From the IMG/VR virus record IMGVR_UViG_3300027797_000011: a stretch of 64,000 nucleotides of DNA; one strand, 5' to 3'. The DNA comes from a virus (lineage: Duplodnaviria > Heunggongvirae > Uroviricota > Caudoviricetes). Of the stretch, positions 3,001-63,466 are shown in pieces. Below the pieces are notes generated by a model. That model was not told the DNA's origin, searched no databases, and worked only from the letters and a program-made list of their open reading frames with translations. How positions within the stretch are numbered: position 1 is the first letter of the stretch; each line of letters opens with the position of its first letter. The translations under genes and the position numbers were made by a program.

Positions 3001-4049
3001 TGAGCATTACCTGGCTCAAAACAAAGATCTAAGAAAGCCATAAACACACTTTCTTTAGAAGCAGGATCTGGAATATATTTGTTAATTAACTCGAGTGTTC
3101 CTAAGAAACTCTTTTGTAATTCTTTATCATTGCCTTCGGGATTTGCGCCAAAGAAATAGTAGAATTGTTTATCTAAATTCTGTATGTAGGTTCTCTGAGC
3201 AGATGGTATTAATCTCTTGTAAGGAACTTCGTCCTTGTGAGTTTGCTTTTCACCAGTCTCTGGATCGGTATTAATATAAGGTTCGTACTTTTGACTTAGC
3301 CCGCCCCCCTGACCACTAGCAACTGCAAACGATAAATCGTTGTCACGTACATTTGGTTTAATATTTGTTTTTGTTTTCTTTACATCTACTTGATGTTTAA
3401 CACTACTATGTGCAGAAGTTAATGCACGATATATGTATTTGTGAAAAACACCTTTGATGCCTGCTTGAATGTCGTTCCATTCTGAACTATGACTAAAGCG
3501 ATACCACTCATCGGGCATGTCTGTTTCTGTATCATATCGACCAAATTCAAAATCTATTTGAATTTTAATAGGAGGATCTTGGAATTGAAATAGTGCATTA
3601 AGTTGTTCACTACCTTGACTAAATCCTAATAGTGTTGTATCGCCTATTTGTTTATGATCGTATGCAGTTAAAAAATCTCTAATCTCTGGTTCAAGTTCTT
3701 TATTACATTGTGTATCAATGTCGCCAACTTTAGGTTTATGTTTAGTAAACTCTTTGTCACTAATACCATCTGTATTAAAGAAATGTAAACTACTGCCACC
3801 TAAGAATTGTTTTGATTGTAGTAAATTAGGATTCCACAATGGCTTTTTGTATTTGCTATAAAAAGCACCATTGATGTCGTTTAATAATTTATCTAGTAAC
3901 CCCACCATAAAACTACGGTTTTGTACTTTGAGATCGATCTCGTCAGCTTGATAAGGTGCAGTGGGATCGTTAGGATTGGGTAATTCTAAGTTGCCACCTT
4001 CAAAAAGAGGAACAGTCTTTTTAGGTTTGAATAACTCGTTTAAGATCAT
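1..4049 (-). CDS. Very large multidomain protein (over 1340 aa), 3' end truncated by the window edge. Contains a ligase/capping-type motif I (NVKVDGFGGRFG), a Gly/Asp low-complexity linker and an HxGH-like segment.
   Basis: ATG at 4047-4049 (minus) overlaps the stop of the upstream gene in an ATGA arrangement. A continuous minus-strand frame was translated by eye down to position 1. No complete minus ORF appears in the track for 1-4045, and the plus-strand ORFs there are short and mirror-like. Motif KVDG(F)GGRFG sits near 1480-1500; GYGYYADYSGDSSGDGGGGDGGGES near 2600-2700. Confidence 0.6.
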   Translation of the reverse strand, partial: MILNELFKPKKTVPLFEGGNLELPNPNDPTAPYQADEIDLKVQNRSFMVGLLDKLLNDINGAFYSKYKKPLWNPNLLQSKQFLGGSSLHFFNTDGISDKEFTKHKPKVGDIDTQCNKELEPEIRDFLTAYDHKQIGDTTLLGFSQGSEQLNALFQFQDPPIKIQIDFEFGRYDTETDMPDEWYRFSHSSEWNDIQAGIKGVFHKYIYRALTSAHSSVKHQVDVKKTKTNIKPNVRDNDLSFAVASGQGGGLSQKYEPYINTDPETGEKQTHKDEVPYKRLIPSAQRTYIQNLDKQFYYFFGANPEGNDKELQKSFLGTLELINKYIPDPASKESVFMAFLDLCFEPGNAQMITKNDPERDQEIKFAAIDNFVKVGKLGKLRNTAIEMGKAYMDEFNEVQAYKKEHPEEKQPRAALKRAKAASQPANENFADTQTLEERRNKKRKARHAAYGPGLYGGYGYYADYSGDSSGDGGGGDGGGESIKNEDAMMGKIADSGKIIRILKKAHTVPFSDEKNWLLVDMDPAKGNNGLGIKWIPADTRFTWVRPYRDNVGQGVAEGATVTRIDSNPITDFGSSLKAYKHTDDWSQSGVDTGDDSYWKNKNLKTNTTKGLFAGDPRRTALYATGNAHETRYVEFTQNGQPIVYFDRKDLPAMRSRKTYLTVFDASDFRQLPTGEWFSENPSKPIKQVPIGDPFKYIADQGWIVRVTDDLDKVFKQVKNMHKAGKIAQYGAEGMNESKQGVAENFADGKNPQDKGDSKRHGVPTKASISTLRNVAKQGGRKGQLAHWMANMKAGKAKHESLNEAEVKAQLRKGMPHLKDLKAADFLDLLDEIHDGNGNFKLENMPLNVKVDGFGGRFGKNADGKPFMGTSRTEPRYAPGFVKYHQEKGTQDPEILGRAKLFDDLFVEMMNAVKLVDSKLGPDFLIDKQVSCEVLFLPFATETEEGKLKFVGIHYDKLPQGVQLALVPLNVVTASTGEPVENSQEVIKELTGLGQQSSVMFIDNSLTQNKALDVTAIVPPLENIEELKSIVSDTAGKRDRTSLELRKNVEAQLQPVKLALEKAIAEDPNIVGKDMLGKDYEGIVLNTRLGPVKITSTEQRAVIAGKQAAKTSARTERPRGESKTAVVAIGSFIGHKGHEELFNYTINKASELGGDPYLFIGNAEGKDDPIPPAVKVQTWHKLYPEYAKNISTVQQGGQLIQKIKHELINPLPNKPPRYDNIVIMVGEDRKDLNMPQALMKAVNKFQGYEHVKVSLGVTPRGTGISGTMLRNSLKSDPPEKALAVWSNAFDVKKLGEDWINHLMDITRKGMGIQQQTQQQPAPVAERLFNALMAPKVNESTSLESTIKNIV

Positions 4050-4450
4050 TTTTTATGATCTCCGACCTGATAGTAATCTTCTTGCACATCATCTATAAAC
4101 TTATCACAAAGTCTTTTGCATAGTTCGTCTTTAAAATCTTCGTCAAATAGCTTTGCTGGATTATCTGTTAGTTTATGATGTTTGTAAAATAACCTACAGC
4201 CTTTATTAACCATAGGCATCCATGATTTAGTGAATCTGTTTCTGTTAAAATCTGGTGAAGTTATCTGTGTTTTTAATTCTTTTACAAATGGTAGAACATG
4301 TGCTTTGTGTAGTGCATCATTATCAATAATATACCAAAATAGCTCATCGGCCATCTTGGCTTTTTCTTCTTCTGTTTTACTTTTGCCGTAATCGGGGAAT
4401 TTCCTATCTTTTTTGTCGACAGGGACGTTAAAAAATTCGTATAGTTTCAT
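4046..4450 (-). CDS. hypothetical protein (134 aa)
   Basis: ORF track. 4-nt ATGA coupling to the downstream giant ORF. Confidence 0.6.
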   Translation of the reverse strand: MKLYEFFNVPVDKKDRKFPDYGKSKTEEEKAKMADELFWYIIDNDALHKAHVLPFVKELKTQITSPDFNRNRFTKSWMPMVNKGCRLFYKHHKLTDNPAKLFDEDFKDELCKRLCDKFIDDVQEDYYQVGDHKK

Positions 4451-4541
4451 AATGTTTATTGAGCCCTATAAGACACTAAATCATGGATATTCATCAAATA
4501 CTCCGTATGGAATATTTATGCAGTTTTAACCAATCAGAGAT

Positions 4542-4967
4542 TTAGTGATTATAGTTGACAAACAGCAAACTACCTGGTGGCGAAGACGCTTCTCGGTGTA
4601 TTTTTGCTCGGACCCATATGAAATTGCCGTTAAAATTAACGTAATTTGTAGTGGTAGTTACAACAGCATTGGCCCCTCGAGCATACATTATAGGTGTACT
4701 ATCTACATCAAACCAATCTCCGGTCCCCGGAACTACAGTTAAGCTGGCCTGTATAGTACAGGTGCCTGCAAAATTAGGAGCAACAGTATAAGAAACAGTA
4801 TGTAGTCCATCGGATGATCCGTAGTATCCATCACCTTTTAGTTTATCACTATAGAATAGTGTAGCACCTGTAGGTGAAACTGCGGTACTAGGAATAGAGA
4901 CGCTATTGCTAATAACGCCTGTTCCTGAGTTGATTTGAAATACAAACTGTTGACTTAAATTGGACAT
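4542..4967 (-). CDS. hypothetical Ser/Thr/Gly-rich protein (141 aa), possibly structural
   Basis: ORF track. Composition resembles the fibre-like proteins elsewhere in the window. Confidence 0.5.
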   Translation of the reverse strand: MSNLSQQFVFQINSGTGVISNSVSIPSTAVSPTGATLFYSDKLKGDGYYGSSDGLHTVSYTVAPNFAGTCTIQASLTVVPGTGDWFDVDSTPIMYARGANAVVTTTTNYVNFNGNFIWVRAKIHREASSPPGSLLFVNYNH

Positions 4968-4982
4968 TGAGTATTTATCTTG

Positions 4983-7247
4983 TTAAACAGTTTCTGCTTC
5001 GGTGGTGTTTTTAACTGATAGCACTTCTACGTAATTAATACACAGAGTATCTTTATCAACAGTTAATTCAACAACTCCGCCATCAACTAGTTTTCCAAAT
5101 AGGATTTCTTTACTCAATGGTTTCTTGATAAACTCATCAATAGTACGTTGTAGTGGACGAGCACCCATTTTACTGTCAAATCCTTTCTTGATTAACAGCT
5201 CAACAGCGTCTGCGTTAAGTTTAACATGAACGTTTCTATCTTTGAGTAGCACATTGAGCTCATCAATAAACTTCTTAACAATTTTAATCATTGTTGTTTG
5301 GTCTAACTTACCAAAGCGGATAATACCGTCCAATCGATTGCGGAATTCAGGAGCAAAGAATTTGTTAATAGCATCCTTAGGATCGCTGTCTCGTTCTAAA
5401 CTACCAAAACCTACGCTATTCTTTTCAGAATCTGCCGCACCTAAATTACTGGTCATAATAAGAATAGCATTGCGTCCGTCTGCTTTCTTACCATTACTAC
5501 CGGTAATAAATCCGTTGTCCATTAATTGAAGCATAATGGTTAACACATCGGGGTGCGCCTTTTCAACTTCGTCTAACAACAGAACACAATTAGGATGTTC
5601 TTGTAGTTTAGTAATCAATTGACCTGCATTGTCATCAAATCCAATATAGCCCGGAGGAGCACCAATAAACTTAGCAATAGAGTGTTTCTCTTGGAATTCG
5701 CTCATATCAAAGCGTACTAGTTCTACACTCATGCCTAAAGCAAGTTGTTTAGCAACTTCTGTTTTACCAACACCGGTTGGTCCTGCAAACAAGAAACTAC
5801 CTACTGGTTTATTAAGAGCTTTTAACCCTGCCTGTGCAATATAGATTTTATCAAGCAATGTTTCGATCGCTTTTTCCTGTCCATATACTTTACTACGCAG
5901 ATTTTTATCTAGGTCTTTAAGATTACGACTTTCTTTTGATGCAATTTGATCTAACGGCAACCCTGTAATCTTACTTACTTCAAATACAATTTCATCATGG
6001 TCTACTACACCATTATCTTCGTCTTTAACCTTGAAGCGGGCACAGGCACAATCAATTAGGTCGATTGCTTTATCTGGTAATTTCTTGTCGCTCATGTACT
6101 TAACGCTATACTTAACCGCATCCACTATTGCCTGCTTGTTAATCTTAACGCCATGGTATTTTTCGTAATATTTTTTAAGCCCCATAAGGATCTTAATAGC
6201 AGTTGCTTCGTCGGGCTCGCCCACCGTGACACGTTGGAACCGACGCATTAGGGCACGATCCTTTTCAAAGTGCTTACGGAATTCTTCCCACGTGGTACTA
6301 GCAATAACTTTAATACTTCCTTTACCCAATACAGGTTTAAGCATATTACTCATATCGTTACTGCCACCACCGACTGCCCCAGCACCGCTCATCATATGAG
6401 CTTCGTCAATAAACAAGATACACTTCTTTTTCTTTTCTAGCGCACTAATAACCATCTTTAGGCGTTCTTCAAAGTCTCCACGATACTTGCTTCCGGCAAG
6501 CATGGCACTAATATCCAAACTATAAACTGTATGATCTTTAATAAACTTAGGAACGTTGCCTTCTTCAATCCTACGTGCTAGACCTTCTGCAATAGCAGTC
6601 TTACCTACACCAGGATCTCCGATCATCATAACATTAGCCTTGGTTCTACGTGCAAGAACAAGAGTAATTTCTTCAATTTCTTTTTCACGGCCAATTACCG
6701 GATCTATTTGTTTAGCCTTAACTTTAGCAGTTAGACTTGTGCAATATTGCACAATGATTTTTTCTAAATGTCTGTTACTAACTTCTTCGGAATCTATATC
6801 ATCTGTATTAGATCCTTCCTTGTTTAGAAAATCAATAAACTTGTCTTTATCAATTTTAGCTTTACGCATAAAATACAATGCATGGCTTTTCTTTTCACTG
6901 AATATGCTAAGGAAACAATCAATAGGTTCAATCTTAGATCGTCCGCTAAACAATACTTGTGTAAATGCTCTATTCAACATTCTTTCCATAGAATGTGTTT
7001 TCTTTGGTTTATCATCAAATTCTGCATTAATAATTTCTTTTAGTTCTTTATTTAGAAAGATTTCGATATCTTTCTGTAGTAAACTAACTTCGGATCCGTA
7101 ACTTGTTAAAAGTTCTTTAAACTTTTCATCTTCTAATAGACTATGCAAAAAATGTTCTAGTGTAAGAAACTCGTGTTTATACTTTGTAGCTAATTCTACA
7201 GCTCGTTCAAAGATTACAGTTAAACTTTTATCTGGTTCTAACATCAA
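4983..7247 (-). CDS. clpA: ClpA-like AAA+ unfoldase with two AAA+ modules
   Basis: 754 aa. Clp N-domain at the N-terminus. Walker A motifs GDPGVGKT and GPTGVGKT. Length and architecture match ClpA rather than ClpB. Confidence 0.85.
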   Translation of the reverse strand: MMLEPDKSLTVIFERAVELATKYKHEFLTLEHFLHSLLEDEKFKELLTSYGSEVSLLQKDIEIFLNKELKEIINAEFDDKPKKTHSMERMLNRAFTQVLFSGRSKIEPIDCFLSIFSEKKSHALYFMRKAKIDKDKFIDFLNKEGSNTDDIDSEEVSNRHLEKIIVQYCTSLTAKVKAKQIDPVIGREKEIEEITLVLARRTKANVMMIGDPGVGKTAIAEGLARRIEEGNVPKFIKDHTVYSLDISAMLAGSKYRGDFEERLKMVISALEKKKKCILFIDEAHMMSGAGAVGGGSNDMSNMLKPVLGKGSIKVIASTTWEEFRKHFEKDRALMRRFQRVTVGEPDEATAIKILMGLKKYYEKYHGVKINKQAIVDAVKYSVKYMSDKKLPDKAIDLIDCACARFKVKDEDNGVVDHDEIVFEVSKITGLPLDQIASKESRNLKDLDKNLRSKVYGQEKAIETLLDKIYIAQAGLKALNKPVGSFLFAGPTGVGKTEVAKQLALGMSVELVRFDMSEFQEKHSIAKFIGAPPGYIGFDDNAGQLITKLQEHPNCVLLLDEVEKAHPDVLTIMLQLMDNGFITGSNGKKADGRNAILIMTSNLGAADSEKNSVGFGSLERDSDPKDAINKFFAPEFRNRLDGIIRFGKLDQTTMIKIVKKFIDELNVLLKDRNVHVKLNADAVELLIKKGFDSKMGARPLQRTIDEFIKKPLSKEILFGKLVDGGVVELTVDKDTLCINYVEVLSVKNTTEAETV

Positions 7248-10535: not shown

Positions 10536-11150
10536 TTAATTTTTAGCGTAGTCTTCTCGTTCTTTCTTTTCACGAGCTTCGCGTTCTTTTTGTTGCTGCC
10601 GGATAAGTGCGTTGCGAGTTGCTACCTTTTGTTCATATATTCTTTTTTCTTCCATGGCTCCGTATACGCCAACACCACCCATAGCAACTGCAAATAAAAT
10701 AACTGCACCTGCAATAAAATACATACCAAAAATAAACATGTCTGCCATTTTCTTCTTATGCGCTAGTTGGCGTTCCGCTTCTTCACGCTCCGCTTCTGCA
10801 CGTTCTTTAAATAGTCTGGTACGCTCGGCAATCATCTGTTCCCAAATCTGTGGCTTGCCTAACTGCCAGAGAATCATATCTTTAAGATCACGCTCTGCTT
10901 GTCTTAGAGCATCACTGTGCATGGCAATCTGCAGAGCTTCATGCCCTAGCTCGGCATCAGTTTTACCAAGACGTTGCGCCTTGGCTTTTACCTTTGATCG
11001 CTCACGATGAATAGCATCTGAACTTTCAAAAAACTTACTAAATTGTCCTGCAAGACTATTGATGTCTTTGCCCAGTGCAACGGCTTGTTTAATATAACTT
11101 ACAGCAGATTGTGCGGCCGTAAATGCAAGTCCTATTGTAATTGGGTCCAC
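10536..11150 (-). CDS. coiled-coil protein with C-terminal TM anchor (204 aa)
   Basis: Starts MDPITIGLAFTAAQSAVSYI. C-terminal FIFGMYFIAGAVILFAVAMGGVGVYGA. Same architecture as 9471..10253. Confidence 0.6.
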   Translation of the reverse strand: MDPITIGLAFTAAQSAVSYIKQAVALGKDINSLAGQFSKFFESSDAIHRERSKVKAKAQRLGKTDAELGHEALQIAMHSDALRQAERDLKDMILWQLGKPQIWEQMIAERTRLFKERAEAEREEAERQLAHKKKMADMFIFGMYFIAGAVILFAVAMGGVGVYGAMEEKRIYEQKVATRNALIRQQQKEREAREKKEREDYAKN

Positions 11151-50717: not shown

Positions 50718-50749
50718 GATATTTTATCCTTGTTATCTGCTATTTAGTC

Positions 50750-50773
50750 AAAAAAAAGCCCACCGAAGTGGGC
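50750..50773 (-). terminator. rho-independent terminator of the tmRNA coding piece
   Basis: Minus sense: GCCCACUUCGGUGGGC followed by U8. Confidence 0.7.
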
Positions 50774-50779
50774 TTGGTG

Positions 50780-51110
50780 GTTTCTGTTACGAGGTATTTC
50801 CTACCCTAGGCGGCTGTTAGGCGGCCAATGCGAACTGTTCGTCGTTTGCGTTTACGTGTTGTGCTTCTACGACCGAGTTACCCCAATCCTACGGGTTCTG
50901 CTTTCCCGAGCTGTCCACTCATTTACTTGTTGCCCTGTCGAAACTATGCATCCCCATCAAAAGCATACTATTTTAGTCTGAGCGCATCACATGCGACTTT
51001 TTAACTCAACGACCTAGTATGCTTATGGTGGAGATGGGGGGATTCGCACCCCCGTCCAGAACACTTTTCTCTTTGCTTCATACAGCAATAACCTACAGTA
51101 TATATTTATT
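50780..51110 (-). ncRNA. ssrA: circularly permuted two-piece tmRNA (ssrA). Acceptor piece at about 51026-51110 ending CCA; intervening hairpin 50956-51025; coding piece 50955 down to about 50780. Tag ANDEQFALAA.
   Basis: Minus sense. The 3' end GGACGGGGGUGCGAAUCCCCCCAUCUCCACCA has a T-arm and acceptor. The 5' start GGGGAUGCAUAGUUUCGACAGGG lies 70 nt downstream of the CCA in transcription order. Acceptor GGGGAUG/CAUCUCC has a G3-U70 pair. Tag frame GCA AAC GAC GAA CAG UUC GCA UUG GCC GCC UAA. The spacer forms an AAGCAUACUA/UAGUAUGCUU stem. Confidence 0.8.
51075..51092. repeat. 18-bp direct repeat copy 1 (GCTTCATACAGCAATAAC)
   Basis: Identical copy at 51567..51584; extended imperfect similarity of about 34 bp. 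Confidence 0.8.
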
Positions 51111-51446
51111 CAGAGGAGTTGTCAATAACCTGTTACGCCAAAACTCTCGGGCCGCATCGCTTTGTTCATCGCTTGGAACTAGTACTCCGTCAATCTCACT
51201 TTGCACAATGTCGTACATCACCGTGGCAACACCCGTTCGTTTGTAACCGGAATATACTTCAATGTGATGCGGATACCATTTGTTATCTCTATCATACTTG
51301 AAAACTGCTGTGGAGATTTTTTTAGACCGAACTTTGTTTTTAATTACGGATACAGTGAATATAAGACTGCATTTATTTTTGGTGTAATCGTAAACAACTT
51401 GTTCTTGAGTTTTAATCAAAGAACAGACCAACTGATAGTCTGACAT
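51093..51446 (-). CDS. small GNAT-family acetyltransferase (117 aa)
   Basis: HIEVYSGYKRTGVATVMYD matches the GNAT acetyl-CoA-binding motif A (R/Q-x-x-G-x-G/A). Confidence 0.55.
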   Translation of the reverse strand: MSDYQLVCSLIKTQEQVVYDYTKNKCSLIFTVSVIKNKVRSKKISTAVFKYDRDNKWYPHHIEVYSGYKRTGVATVMYDIVQSEIDGVLVPSDEQSDAAREFWRNRLLTTPLNKYIL

Positions 51447-51711: not shown

Positions 51712-52440
51712 TTAATGATTAATCCACTCGCTATTTTTATATGGTTTCCCAACTTCTGCTTGCGGTAGATAACTGACTATTTTTTTCTTAAAATGTTTTA
51801 TTATAGGATGACCGTGATCGTGTCCAAATGCTTTTAGATACATGATATAACAATTTTTTGTATATCTACCTTTGTGATTTTGATTTATGTAGTTTATAAT
51901 CTTTGTTTTTTTGCCGTTAAACATTTCATGTAATTCACAGGCAGTATTAAATGCATACGCATCAATCTCGTCTCTACATCCTAGGTAACCCTGCTCTTCT
52001 CTTTGCTTAGTTCTACTGGCCGTACTAGGAAACTCTGGTGTTGTTTTCCAGTTCCTACGGCGGTGTTGTCTCATGTGTATAATTTCATGTAGCACAGTAT
52101 CGGCAAATGTTGAACATATTCTAGAGAACATTCTAGGACTTAATTTTACAGGTTTTGTTTTATTATGATAATTGAAATTAATTTCAATGCATTTTTTATA
52201 TTCTGCATCAAAGTCACTATAGTATGCACCACCGATCCAAACTTTTCCCGGATCTACTTTAGTTGAATAAAGTTTTCTAAACCTAATAGGAATATATTGG
52301 TTAATTTGATTTTTAAACTTACGCTGGATTTGCTCGGGCGTAAGTTGTTGATTGACTATTTTGTCATGAGTTTGATATAAAATATCAAAAAGAGTTTTTC
52401 TATCCAATTGGAACCAGTCAAAAGCGGCGTCTTTTTTCAT
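51712..52440 (-). CDS. putative zinc metallopeptidase (HExxH), SprT-like
   Basis: VLHEIIHMRQH motif. 242 aa. Confidence 0.5.
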   Translation of the reverse strand: MKKDAAFDWFQLDRKTLFDILYQTHDKIVNQQLTPEQIQRKFKNQINQYIPIRFRKLYSTKVDPGKVWIGGAYYSDFDAEYKKCIEINFNYHNKTKPVKLSPRMFSRICSTFADTVLHEIIHMRQHRRRNWKTTPEFPSTASRTKQREEQGYLGCRDEIDAYAFNTACELHEMFNGKKTKIINYINQNHKGRYTKNCYIMYLKAFGHDHGHPIIKHFKKKIVSYLPQAEVGKPYKNSEWINH

Positions 52441-52500
52441 GATCTTACCCTATATATCAGTAATTATCCTAAAAAAACTTTCCATTATATTTGTATATAA

Positions 52501-52575
52501 TATGGCGGGCCCTGCAGGAATCGAACCCACATCGCCAAGTTCGAAGCATGGCATTCTATCCGTTGAACTAAGGAC
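52501..52575 (-). tRNA. tRNA-Arg (anticodon UCG), short (72 nt plus CCA)
   Basis: Acceptor GGGUCCU/AGGGCCC, T-loop UUCGAUU, anticodon loop CUUCGAA, CCA encoded. One anticodon-stem mismatch. Confidence 0.6.
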
Positions 52576-52582
52576 CCTTAAA

Positions 52583-52690
52583 AATGGTGTGGCTGGTAGG
52601 ACTTGAACCTACAAGGTGAAGCTAGGCTTCAAACCTATCCCTGAAACCTTTGGCGGGTTTTTCGGAGCTATGCCAATTTCGCTTACAGCC
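52583..52690 (-). tRNA. atypical 108-nt tRNA-like gene with perfect acceptor and T-arm but about 33 extra nucleotides in the anticodon/variable region
   Basis: Acceptor GUGGCUG/CAGCCAC, discriminator A, CCA. T-arm GUAGG-UUCAAGU-CCUAC. D-arm AGC-GAAAUUGGCAUA-GCU. Internal hairpins AAACC-CGCCAAA-GGUUU and GAAGC-CUA-GCUUC. No shorter cloverleaf can be closed. Confidence 0.45.
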
Positions 52691-52781
52691 ACAGTTAACT
52701 TTAACATGTTATTGTATTTAAGTCAAGTAATTGTGAGTAAATTAACTACCGTTATAAATAGCGTTATGAGAGAGTAATAAC

Positions 52782-53411
52782 ATGGTCATGTGCAATCTTC
52801 AACCTGAGTTTGATTCAAACTGGATTGATTTAATCAAATTAGATCCGGTACATCCAACGGACGAAAAAAAGAATTTAATGAGAAGATTGGGAAATGATAG
52901 ACTCATTTATACTCTTATCATGGACGGCAAACCTTGTGCCATGCTTCAGGTGGCGCTCAAAAATAAATGCCCCACTACTGCAAATGAACTTTGGAATAAA
53001 CGGGAAGATGTAGATTTTAACTATGCTGTGTTTTATTCCGTATTCCGGTTACCCGGTGCAGACAATGCCAAGGGGTCTGTAAAAGAATTAATATTTGAGG
53101 CCGCCGCAGACCTACAAAAAAGATATGTAGGAATTTCAAAGTTTATTACATTAAGCCCAATACCTAGTCTTCGTAAAAACTTTAAAAAGAATCCCGGTAT
53201 TGAAGAAGTACAAGAATACATATTCAATAAAAAAGACCCAGTAGCACGATTCCATATGATGAATGGAGCCTTACCCTGGGCTGTTAGACCAAAAGCTGAT
53301 TCTAGCAAATTACGTAAAGATGAAAGTTGGGGTTGGATGGTCAGTTATGATTATACACCACTACTAGACCATCCAACCATTAAACTACATCCTATAGTAG
53401 AAATAGCCTAA
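52782..53411 (+). CDS. malonyl-CoA decarboxylase-like catalytic domain (GNAT-fold), stand-alone 209 aa
   Basis: ITLSPIPSL (MCD TLSPIPGF motif with catalytic Ser) and ARFHMMNGALPW (MCD FHLGNGA motif with catalytic His). Confidence 0.55.
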   Translation: MVMCNLQPEFDSNWIDLIKLDPVHPTDEKKNLMRRLGNDRLIYTLIMDGKPCAMLQVALKNKCPTTANELWNKREDVDFNYAVFYSVFRLPGADNAKGSVKELIFEAAADLQKRYVGISKFITLSPIPSLRKNFKKNPGIEEVQEYIFNKKDPVARFHMMNGALPWAVRPKADSSKLRKDESWGWMVSYDYTPLLDHPTIKLHPIVEIA

Positions 53412-60950: not shown

Positions 60951-61034
60951 TGGTGCCCCAGGTCGGACTCGAACCGACACGCCTTTCGACACTGGCTTCT
61001 AAGACCAGCGTGGCTACCATTACACCACCGGGGC
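60951..61034 (-). tRNA. tRNA-Leu (anticodon UAG), type II
   Basis: Acceptor GCCCCGG; anticodon arm CUGGU-CUUAGAA-GCCAG; long variable arm; T-arm GUCGG-UUCGAGU-CCGAC; CCA encoded. Confidence 0.8.
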
Positions 61035-62725: not shown

Positions 62726-62802
62726 TGGTACCCCTGGGCAGATTCGAACCGCCAACCAACAGATTTTAAGTCTATCCGCACTACCAATTAGCGTACAGGG
62801 GC
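62726..62802 (-). tRNA. class-I tRNA with anticodon UAA (Leu anticodon, but only a 5-nt variable loop)
   Basis: Acceptor GCCCCUG/CAGGGGU, discriminator A, CCA. D-arm UACGCUAAUUGGUAGUGCG. Anticodon arm AUAGA-CUUAAAA-UCUGU. Variable UGGUU. T-arm GGCGG-UUCGAAU-CUGCC. Confidence 0.65.
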
Positions 62803-62872: not shown

Positions 62873-62949
62873 TGGTACCTTCGGGCGGATTCGAACCCCC
62901 AACCACCTGCTTCTAAGGCAAGCCGCACTACCAATTAGCGTACGAAGGC
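62873..62949 (-). tRNA. class-I tRNA with anticodon UAG (Leu anticodon, short variable loop), paralog of 62726..62802
   Basis: Same D-arm UACGCUAAUUGGUAGUGCG; anticodon arm CUUGC-CUUAGAA-GCAGG; variable UGGUU; acceptor GCCUUCG/CGAAGGU; CCA encoded. Confidence 0.65.
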
Positions 62950-63108: not shown

Positions 63109-63185
63109 TGGTACCCCGTGTCTGATTCGAACAGACAGCCAACTCCTTTTGAGAGAATCCGCACTACCAATTAGCGTAACGGGGC
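63109..63185 (-). tRNA. class-I tRNA with anticodon CAA (Leu anticodon, short variable loop), third paralog
   Basis: Same D-arm; anticodon arm AUUCU-CUCAAAA-GGAGU; variable UGGCU; T-arm GUCUG-UUCGAAU-CAGAC; acceptor GCCCCGU/ACGGGGU; CCA encoded. Confidence 0.65.
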
Positions 63186-63278: not shown

Positions 63279-63370
63279 TGGTACCAGCGGAGGGGATCGA
63301 ACCCTCTCAAGAACGCTAATCTGGCGCTAAAAGGCTTATAAGACCTCTCTGACTTCCAAGTCTCGCTGGC
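63279..63370 (-). tRNA. type II tRNA (long variable arm) with unusual anticodon loop CUUAUAA (apparent anticodon UAU); identity uncertain (Leu/Tyr/Ser-derived?)
   Basis: Acceptor GCCAGCG/CGCUGGU, A73, CCA. T-arm GAGGG-UUCGAUC-CCCUC. Variable-arm hairpin AGCGC..GCGUU. Non-standard D-arm. Confidence 0.5.
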
Positions 63371-63377
63371 AATAATT

Positions 63378-63466
63378 TGGCGGGGGGATGGTAGAATCGA
63401 ACTCCAACCTCGTTAAAAGTCCATCTGTTTTCAAGACAGCGCAGGGCCCAGCCCCGATAACCCCCC
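63378..63466 (-). tRNA. tRNA-Ser (anticodon UGA), type II, with imperfect T-stem
   Basis: Acceptor GGGGGG/CCCCCC, discriminator G; anticodon loop CUUGAAA flanked by CUGU/ACAG; long variable region; CCA encoded. Confidence 0.5.

Follow-up and report, generated by a model that had tools for sequence, protein, structure and literature searches.

A conserved phage gene family for a tRNA-shaped RNA without an anticodon

A 64,000-nucleotide (nt) stretch of DNA from a Caudoviricetes virus (IMG/VR record IMGVR_UViG_3300027797_000011; the whole stretch is called the window) carries on its minus strand, at 52585..52692, a 108-nt element that, judged from comparison with its relatives, is a conserved gene for a tRNA-shaped RNA without an anticodon. 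The element belongs to a large, previously undescribed family of environmental T4-like and jumbo phages; the window phage is itself T4-like and encodes a gp44-type clamp loader, baseplate wedge proteins, 19 tRNAs and a two-piece transfer-messenger RNA (tmRNA). At roughly even odds (a probability of about 0.5), the RNA would be a small, stable, trans-acting and non-decoding tRNA mimic that derives from a class II tRNA, is closest to tRNA-Leu and is charged by the host leucyl-tRNA synthetase (LeuRS). This kind of RNA is already known from the stable RNAs of phages T4 and T5, and the family itself is new and large.

Structure and extent of the family

Homologues were gathered by exact-pattern scans of IMG/VR, using patterns from the acceptor stem and T arm and then a pattern from the 5′ D-arm region only. 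The acceptor and T-arm patterns returned about 18 distinct sequences with differing acceptor stems, and a covariance model, R2, was built from these first 18 sequences. The 5′ D-arm pattern returned at least 120 IMG/VR loci, and among the matches listed 116 of 118 were the same RNA. Family members score 64-105 bits with R2, genuine tRNAs score 50 bits or less, and the window holds one copy. Comparative figures refer to alignment A4, which contains 86 distinct homologues from phage contigs, unless another total is given. The parts of the window element, in the order of the RNA, are listed below together with the tRNA gene that follows it.

52585..52692, minus strand: whole tRNA-like RNA gene, 108 nt including the encoded CCA (R2 score 103.7 bits, E = 7e-28)
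From 52692, minus strand: 5′ part of the full RNA, GUGGCUG UA AGC-GAAAUUGGCAUA-GCU CC-GAA-AAACC-CGCCAAA-GGUUU-CAG-GG AU
To 52585, minus strand: 3′ part of the full RNA, AGGU-UU-GAAGC-CUA-GCUUC-ACCU U GUAGG-UUCAAGU-CCUAC CAGCCAC A CCA
52686..52692, minus strand: acceptor stem 5′ strand GUGGCUG, RNA 1-7, in perfect pairing with 52589..52595
52666..52685, minus strand: U8-A9 and D arm AGC / GAAAUUGGCAUA / GCU, RNA 8-27, including G18G19
52639..52665, minus strand: arm X, RNA 28-54, at the place of the anticodon arm, with CC/GG base, 3x3 internal loop, AAACC/GGUUU and loop CGCCAAA (minimum free energy (MFE) fold)
52637..52638, minus strand: linker AU between arms X and Y, RNA 55-56
52614..52636, minus strand: arm Y, RNA 57-79, the long variable arm, with AGGU/ACCU, UU bulge, GAAGC/GCUUC and triloop CUA
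52613..52613, minus strand: single U (the ‘U48’ position) separating arm Y from the T stem
52596..52612, minus strand: T arm GUAGG-UUCAAGU-CCUAC, RNA 81-97
52585..52595, minus strand: acceptor stem 3′ strand CAGCCAC (52595..52589), discriminator A73 (52588) and CCA (52587..52585), RNA 98-108
52503..52577, minus strand: tRNA-Arg(UCG), called by ARAGORN (Rfam tRNA 55.7 bits), 7 nt downstream of the element

A preliminary description, made from the window sequence without database searches, had proposed a 108-nt tRNA-like element with a perfect 7-bp acceptor stem (GUGGCUG/CAGCCAC, followed by A-CCA), a perfect T arm (GUAGG-UUCAAGU-CCUAC, at 52612..52596), a D region whose GG dinucleotide sits in a loop of 11-12 nt (AGC-GAAAUUGGCAUA-GCU, 12 nt) and a D-arm to T-arm spacing of 53 nt (exactly RNA 28-80), all of which are present on the minus strand. 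The span that it gave, 52583..52690, was 2 nt off, and the gap to tRNA-Arg(UCG), given as 8 nt, is 7 nt. The two hairpins that it pointed out, AAACC-CGCCAAA-GGUUU and GAAGC-CUA-GCUUC, are each the tip of a longer arm in the MFE fold, in which arm X consists of UCC/GGA, a 3x3 internal loop and 5 bp, and arm Y consists of AGGU/ACCU, a UU bulge and 5 bp. No open reading frame (ORF) was found in the 108-nt element. The fold of the single sequence is only modestly better than that of shuffled sequences (z = -2.28, with 2 of 200 shuffles equally stable), and it is the comparative evidence that decisively places the element beyond chance.

In that comparison the model structure was paired in 92.6% of cells and 18 of 24 pairs were changed on both sides, whereas none of 500 shuffles matched the observed pairing values and sliding the partners by 1-3 columns left 29-48% paired. 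The acceptor stem is 100% paired, with double-sided changes in 6 of its 7 pairs, and the T stem is always paired, nearly invariant in sequence and closed by a T loop UUCRANN. Pair 3:70 is G-C or A-U, and pair 2:71 is U-A, C-G or U.G and never G-C. Invariant in all 86 sequences are G7, U8, A10, G11, an A at the 14/15 position, G18G19 and the two A's that follow, ‘U48’, T-loop U54, U55, C56 and A58, and the discriminator A73; an A can be assigned to position 15 in 79 of them, the D-loop numbering being ambiguous, and CCA is encoded in about 80. The commonest D loop is GGAAU(A)UGG(C/U)AGAC, of which the window copy has the variant GAAAUUGGCAUA. Arm X measures 11-36 nt and has a hypervariable interior in which only the CC..GG base is conserved, its loops of 3-10 nt including UUCG, GNRA (GCGA, GAGA, GUGA, GGGA, GCAA), CUUG, YCAUA and many others. 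The linker between arms X and Y is mostly A followed by any nucleotide (AC in 36, AU in 24, AA in 9). Arm Y measures 22-31 nt and ends in a triloop in 83 of the 86 (UUA 26, AUA 25, GUA 15, AUU 10, CUA 7), and all four pairs of its tip covary. Every substitution within the RNA of the 97%-identical relative L002 falls at an unpaired position of the model.

These data bear on the view that the element is a decaying, functionless tRNA-Leu gene broken by an insertion. The tRNA-Leu-like core and the silence of standard tRNA finders would fit such a pseudogene, but it is hardly credible: the covariation refutes it, all helices being kept through compensatory changes in 86 distinct sequences, the tertiary nucleotides and A73 are invariant, and a precisely spaced promoter is retained.

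The contigs that carry the family range from 4 to 355 kb. A scan of the GTDB representatives (one genome per species) gave 12 pattern matches with one true member, on a 14-kb contig, and the family looks phage-specific. In a blastn search against 50,697 records of a cultured-phage collection, only T-arm-sized matches to ordinary tRNAs and no family member were found. Rfam 15 detected none of 13 relatives at gathering thresholds, and full-text literature searches returned no description of an anticodon-less phage tRNA-like family.

Absence of an anticodon

No conserved 7-nt loop, U33 or conserved triplet was found among the 86 homologues. The arm X loop of the window, CGCCAAA, has G at position 33 and would present CCA as an anticodon, whereas the loop of the near-identical L002, CGCCUAA, would present CCU. 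With a hairpin of no fixed length or sequence in place of the anticodon arm, the RNA cannot read codons. The preliminary description had allowed for a conventional tRNA overlooked on either strand; none came to light, since neither default ARAGORN nor Rfam at its gathering threshold finds a gene here on either strand. Standard tRNA annotation has a systematic gap in which such genes are missed or, as in the 8 of 86 homologues that default ARAGORN calls Pro(GGG), Arg(UCG), His(AUG) or Ala(GGC), are given spurious anticodons, the Arg(UCG) call arising from a UUCG tetraloop. The default, intron, lowered-threshold and mitochondrial modes of ARAGORN produced only low-threshold and mutually inconsistent calls.

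A decoding tRNA, whether intron-containing, extreme type II or a suppressor resembling tRNA-Sec or allo-tRNA, was weighed against these observations and is very improbable. Three results could be cited in its favour. With relaxed filters, the sensitive mode, the Rfam tRNA model scores 29.3 bits against a gathering threshold of 29, with arm Y forced into the role of the anticodon arm (loop UUUGAAG, Ser(UGA)) and a 44-nt insertion; the ARAGORN intron search, which the preliminary description had proposed, gives a call at the 80% threshold and at no stricter one, Leu(CAG) with a 15-nt ‘intron’ and mismatched stems; and the NUA triloop of arm Y could pass for the anticodon of a Tyr or stop codon. 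The Rfam pairing, however, is broken in L002, which turns a U-A pair into C.A and alters the ‘anticodon’, and the triloop is a 3-nt loop closed by a covarying C-G pair in place of U33/R37. The same phages also have ordinary genes for tRNA-Leu, tRNA-Tyr and tRNA-Ser.

The small intervening sequence suggested in the preliminary description did not hold up. Intron-mode calls over the 86 homologues are scattered among isotypes and anticodons, the insert is a self-closing hairpin of 11-36 nt with stable tetraloops, far below the size of a group I intron, and no bulge-helix-bulge motif was seen in the folds. Its second suggestion, an extreme type II or Sec-like tRNA, survives in part: the layout of an arm, a long variable arm, one U and the T stem is that of class II, but there is no anticodon loop. 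The Sec-like part fails, as the acceptor and T stems are 7/5 and not 8/5 or 9/4, the D stem has 3 bp with a 12-nt loop where tRNA-Sec has 6 bp and 4 nt, the UCA anticodon is missing, the discriminator is A73 and not G73, and Rfam tRNA-Sec (RF01852) has no match on the sense strand, its matches lying on the opposite strand only, at 14.1 bits. The suggestion of a tRNA-derived regulatory RNA fits best in being tRNA-derived and non-decoding, whereas ‘regulatory’ found no support.

Likeness to tRNA-Leu, expression and possible roles

The best R2 matches outside the family are tRNA-Leu genes of the window (30.8, 30.0 and 26.4 bits) and of T4 (38.2 bits); in T5, tRNA-Leu comes second at 34.3 bits, behind tRNA-His at 39.3 bits. 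The family D loop GGAAU(A)UGG(C/U)AGAC matches the D loops of T5 tRNA-Leu and T5 RNA1. With class II tRNA-Leu the family shares the long variable arm, A73, U8, an A-rich D loop with G18G19 followed by A, U48 and a canonical T loop, and the acceptor 5′ strand of the element on contig L101 is identical to that of its own tRNA-Leu(UAA). The family differs in that it lacks both a 5-bp stem closing a 7-nt anticodon loop and an anticodon of the type NAG or NAA, in the arbitrary length of arm X, and in its putative transcription without a leader. An acceptor stem that co-varies with the tRNA-Leu of the same phage was considered and rejected, as L101 is the only such case and generally there is no match.

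In E. coli, the identity set for LeuRS comprises A73, A15:U48, G18G19, A20a, U8:A14 and the D/T tertiary pairs G18:U55, G19:C56 and U54:A58, with the anticodon and the variable arm dispensable (PMC9976931). The family nucleotides cover most of this set at aligned positions, the D-loop numbering again being ambiguous. The RNA may be leucylated, a reading suggested by the fact that the invariant nucleotides cover most of the LeuRS set while the variable parts are those dispensable for leucylation. The Ser determinants G73 and G2:C71 are absent in all 86 homologues, and Tyr identity (A73 with a GUA anticodon, U35) would need an anticodon loop, of which the family has none.

The element is preceded by its own promoter, the sole promoter-like site found in a scan of 52300..52900.

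52721..52726, minus strand: -35 hexamer TTGACT of a sigma-70-type promoter (promoter scan)
52698..52703, minus strand: -10 hexamer TAAAGT, ending 5 nt upstream of RNA nucleotide 1

The two hexamers are 17 nt apart, with TG before the -10, and make 9 of 12 matches to the sigma-70-type consensus. Among 83 distinct cases in the family, the best -10 reads TATAAT in 51 and TATACT in 21, and in 73 it precedes nucleotide 1 by exactly 6 nt; the -35 matches at 5 or more of 6 positions in 51 of the 83, and nucleotide 1 is a purine in every case. The simplest reading of this fixed -10 spacing is a leaderless transcript, and the RNA is probably a primary transcript that carries a 5′-triphosphate. At the 3′ end, positions +2 to +4 past the CCA are 91-96% A/T, compared with 61% across the loci. 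A/U-rich trailers of this sort resemble the RNase E cleavage sites that release E. coli tRNAs, a likeness that suggests release of the RNA. The tRNA-Arg(UCG) downstream, on the same strand, is probably co-transcribed.

Under the tRNA-Leu mimic reading, host RNA polymerase would transcribe the RNA from its own strong sigma-70 promoter with a start at nucleotide 1, so that no RNase P cleavage would be required, and the 3′ end would be freed by a cut in the A/U-rich trailer, or else when RNase P processes the next tRNA, and would then be trimmed to ACCA. The RNA would then adopt the tRNA L-shape and act in trans on proteins that read the acceptor end, elbow and variable arm and not the anticodon. 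Charging by host LeuRS would be the most likely specific step, and the mimic, charged or uncharged, could serve as a decoy, a pseudo-substrate or an aminoacyl carrier.

Several points weigh against this reading. The family, the fold and the lack of an anticodon are observed, whereas we infer from sequence where transcription starts, how the 3′ end matures, that the RNA is charged and that it acts in trans. U8:A14, G18G19 and the T loop would be expected in any L-shaped mimic, which leaves only A73, A15:U48 and A20a as Leu-specific, and the D-loop numbering behind the latter two is not unambiguous. Homologues were gathered with anchored patterns (T arm or type-2 D arm), and because they were gathered by sequence pattern the invariance of the anchored segments is partly ascertainment bias. 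Leucylation also leaves the conservation of the NUA triloop and of the T-stem sequence unexplained, and these indicate a further partner besides LeuRS. Finally, an ORF that starts 23-61 nt downstream in 57% of related loci makes a role in cis possible.

The RNA could instead be an anti-defence decoy, that is, an uncharged and nuclease-resistant class II tRNA look-alike that is made early and titrates an immune nuclease or a tRNA-modifying toxin. The target enzyme would read the elbow, the long variable arm and the ACCA end rather than the anticodon, a PtuAB-type nuclease (Septu, retron-Eco7) being an example. We regard this as unlikely, yet several features agree with it. The consensus promoter suggests strong expression that, being sigma-70-driven, is probably early; closed and very stable tetraloops stand in place of the anticodon loop; and the family looks confined to phages. 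The variable-arm tip is the most conserved feature outside the core, with 3 bp and a triloop that often read GUC-NUA-GAC, and the corresponding hairpin of tRNA-Tyr is the Septu cut site. In E. coli tRNA-Tyr the variable-arm hairpin is GUC-AUC-GAC, which the arm Y tips resemble. The PtuAB nuclease of Septu and retron-Eco7 cleaves tRNA-Tyr in its variable arm, where the stem meets the triloop (C48/A49), a defence that phages reportedly answer with a tRNA-Tyr of their own (PMC13096335).

Against such a decoy, the scaffold is like that of tRNA-Leu and not tRNA-Tyr, the tRNA-Tyr genes present in the same phages have variable arms that look different, and a resemblance that consists of a 3-bp stem and a triloop is weak evidence. 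We know of no defence system that targets the variable arm of tRNA-Leu. A decoy would also have no obvious need for A73 in 86 of 86 sequences. Worded more strongly, as an anti-defence weapon in which an uncleavable class II pseudo-substrate is expressed within minutes and traps tRNA-attacking immune enzymes (for example the PtuAB-type nucleases of Septu and retrons, or tRNA 3′-end-modifying toxins), the proposal is slightly less likely still; if it were true, the ‘tRNA-like stable RNAs’ of T4 and T5 would be the same kind of countermeasure.

The neighbouring genes bear on whether the RNA acts in cis, as a 5′ module that aids the processing or stability of the downstream Hc1-like, HExxH or tRNA RNAs and is not a free RNA, a role that we consider improbable. 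In its support, the element is always the first transcribed after the promoter and its syntenic position is conserved: of 129 loci, 67 have a radical-SAM gene upstream in divergent orientation, and the place downstream is taken by an Hc1-type histone-like ORF in 73 (its start 23-61 nt past the RNA), by an ORF of about 110 aa with a signal peptide and an HExxH motif in 21, or, as in the window, by a directly adjacent tRNA (Thr, Ser, Arg or Cys) in 15 of 87 distinct downstream contexts. However, the downstream gene varies among phages while the RNA stays constant, and a simple hairpin would be enough to stabilise a transcript, which makes the invariant A73, the encoded CCA and the intact elbow superfluous. 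The A/U-rich trailer after the CCA, moreover, suggests that the RNA is cut off, and a conserved TATAAGTA, placed between the RNA and the Hc1-like gene, has the look of a late promoter in its own right.

The neighbours were also considered as a source of a partner protein for the RNA, and this was rejected, as they are inconsistent (malonyl-CoA decarboxylase (MCD)-like with a GNAT fold, radical-SAM, Hc1-like and small HExxH proteins) and yield no consistent RNA-related partner. The Hc1-type proteins have 62-67 aa and resemble histone H1 (PF07432, E = 9e-14), for example at 11126..11320 in L119 and 6055..6393 in L149 (oriented coordinates), and the TATAAGTA motif resembles a T4 late promoter. 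Synechococcus phage S-SRM01 has an Hc1-like gene, with an upstream space too small for the RNA. The alternative downstream protein of about 110 aa, in 21 loci, carries its signal peptide together with a GHExxHC motif. In the window, tRNA-Arg is followed at 51712..52440 (minus strand) by a 242-aa ORF with an HExxH-like HEIIHMRQH and no Pfam or PHROG match; its linkage is syntenic, since 26 related loci have homologues at 0.1-4.4 kb downstream of their tRNA-like RNA. Divergent from the promoter region of the RNA, at 52782..53411 (plus strand), is a gene for a 209-aa malonyl-CoA decarboxylase C-terminal (GNAT-fold) protein.

Known tRNA-like RNAs and other features of the window

To our knowledge, no tRNA-like stable RNA was seen in phages before RNA C and RNA D of T4 and RNA1 and RNA2 of T5, which have been a loose end for about 45 years. 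The two T4 species are stable RNAs of the tRNA cluster with unexplained roles (PMC3014915, PMC9697503), and T5 RNA1 (144 nt) and RNA2 (125 nt) are annotated in GenBank NC_005859 as ‘tRNA-like stable RNA with unknown functions’. The window element fits this description in its tRNA-cluster site, its acceptor-like and T-arm parts, its extra hairpins and its lack of an anticodon, while an encoded A73-CCA, a true 7-bp acceptor stem, the NUA triloop and the leaderless promoter set the family apart from the T4 and T5 RNAs.

T5 RNA1 lies in the phage tRNA cluster and folds in the same order as the family, with an acceptor, UG, a D arm, a long hairpin without an anticodon, a second hairpin, 1-2 unpaired nt ending in U, a T arm and the acceptor 3′ strand, and its D loop GGAAUUGGUAGAC, of tRNA-Leu type, is identical to the loops of many family members. 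It differs in its acceptor stem of about 6 bp, the lack of an encoded ACCA, a first arm of about 57 nt, the lack of an NUA triloop and a position inside an operon, not directly behind a promoter; its R2 score is 16.2 bits with a poor alignment, a similarity that is not statistically convincing. T4 RNA C (species 1 RNA, 139 nt) is likewise a small stable RNA of the tRNA cluster, and folding gives it a T arm CCGGG-UUCGAAU-CCCGG, an acceptor-like closing stem and two internal hairpins, but it has no GG-bearing D arm and no ACCA, lies at the 3′ end of the cluster, is classed as late and scores 14.3 bits with a poor alignment. The low scores and poor alignments of T5 RNA1 and T4 RNA C are compatible with either distant homology or convergence from tRNA-Leu. 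Further annotated stable RNAs of T5 (NC_005859, locus L248) lie at 4285..7084, namely RNAIII, RNAI, RNAIV, RNA2H and RNAX, with no assigned function; RNAI is 107 nt long, ends in GCCA and folds as a long closed stem and not as a cloverleaf.

The family overturns nothing established and makes an old question testable, in that about 86 distinct sequences provide a comparative handle on the stable RNAs of T4 and T5. The parts under selection are the A73 acceptor end, the elbow, U48, the variable-arm triloop and the leaderless promoter, and the part left free is the anticodon region, which narrows the partners to proteins that read a tRNA without its anticodon. Candidates are LeuRS, EF-Tu, CCA- or 3′-end-acting enzymes and nucleases directed at the variable arm.

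The tRNA-like domain of tmRNA and the bacterial Y RNA-like YrlA are also non-decoding mimics of the acceptor, T-arm and elbow region. A tmRNA differs in having G3:U70 (alanine identity), a tag ORF and pseudoknots, where the family has G-C or A-U at 3:70, and the window has a separate and complete two-piece tmRNA gene at 50726..51118. The 5′ and 3′ ends of YrlA sit in a Ro-binding stem and not in an ACCA-bearing acceptor stem, and Rfam gave no YrlA match at the element. The window tmRNA (minus strand) is circularly permuted and of betaproteobacterial type, with the tag ANDEQFALAA, and in L067 the tRNA-like RNA is followed, after about 1.8 kb, by a similar tmRNA gene with the tag ANDEAFLMAA. Contig L101, which also carries the tRNA-like RNA, has a GOLLD RNA (RF02032, 207 bits) with a nested tRNA at 3511..3974 (minus strand).

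Elsewhere in the window, a 754-aa ClpA-like double-AAA+ ATPase is encoded at 4983..7247 (minus strand). Two adjacent genes on the minus strand are tRNA-Sec-shaped and may be allo-tRNA-like, with Rfam tRNA-Sec scores of 29.5 and 43.2 bits, below the 47-bit cut-off. One, at 63283..63370, is a 92-nt ‘tRNA-Ile(UAU)’ whose variable arm is long and whose D arm has a 4-bp stem and a 4-nt loop, and it is also found in related loci L101, L147 and L177; the other, at 63382..63466, has an anticodon loop CUUGAAA (UGA) and G73 and was missed by ARAGORN. Three 77-nt tRNA-Leu genes (UAA, UAG and CAA; 62726..62802, 62873..62949 and 63109..63185, minus strand) lack a long variable arm and look like type I, beside a normal 84-nt type II tRNA-Leu(UAG) at 60951..61034.

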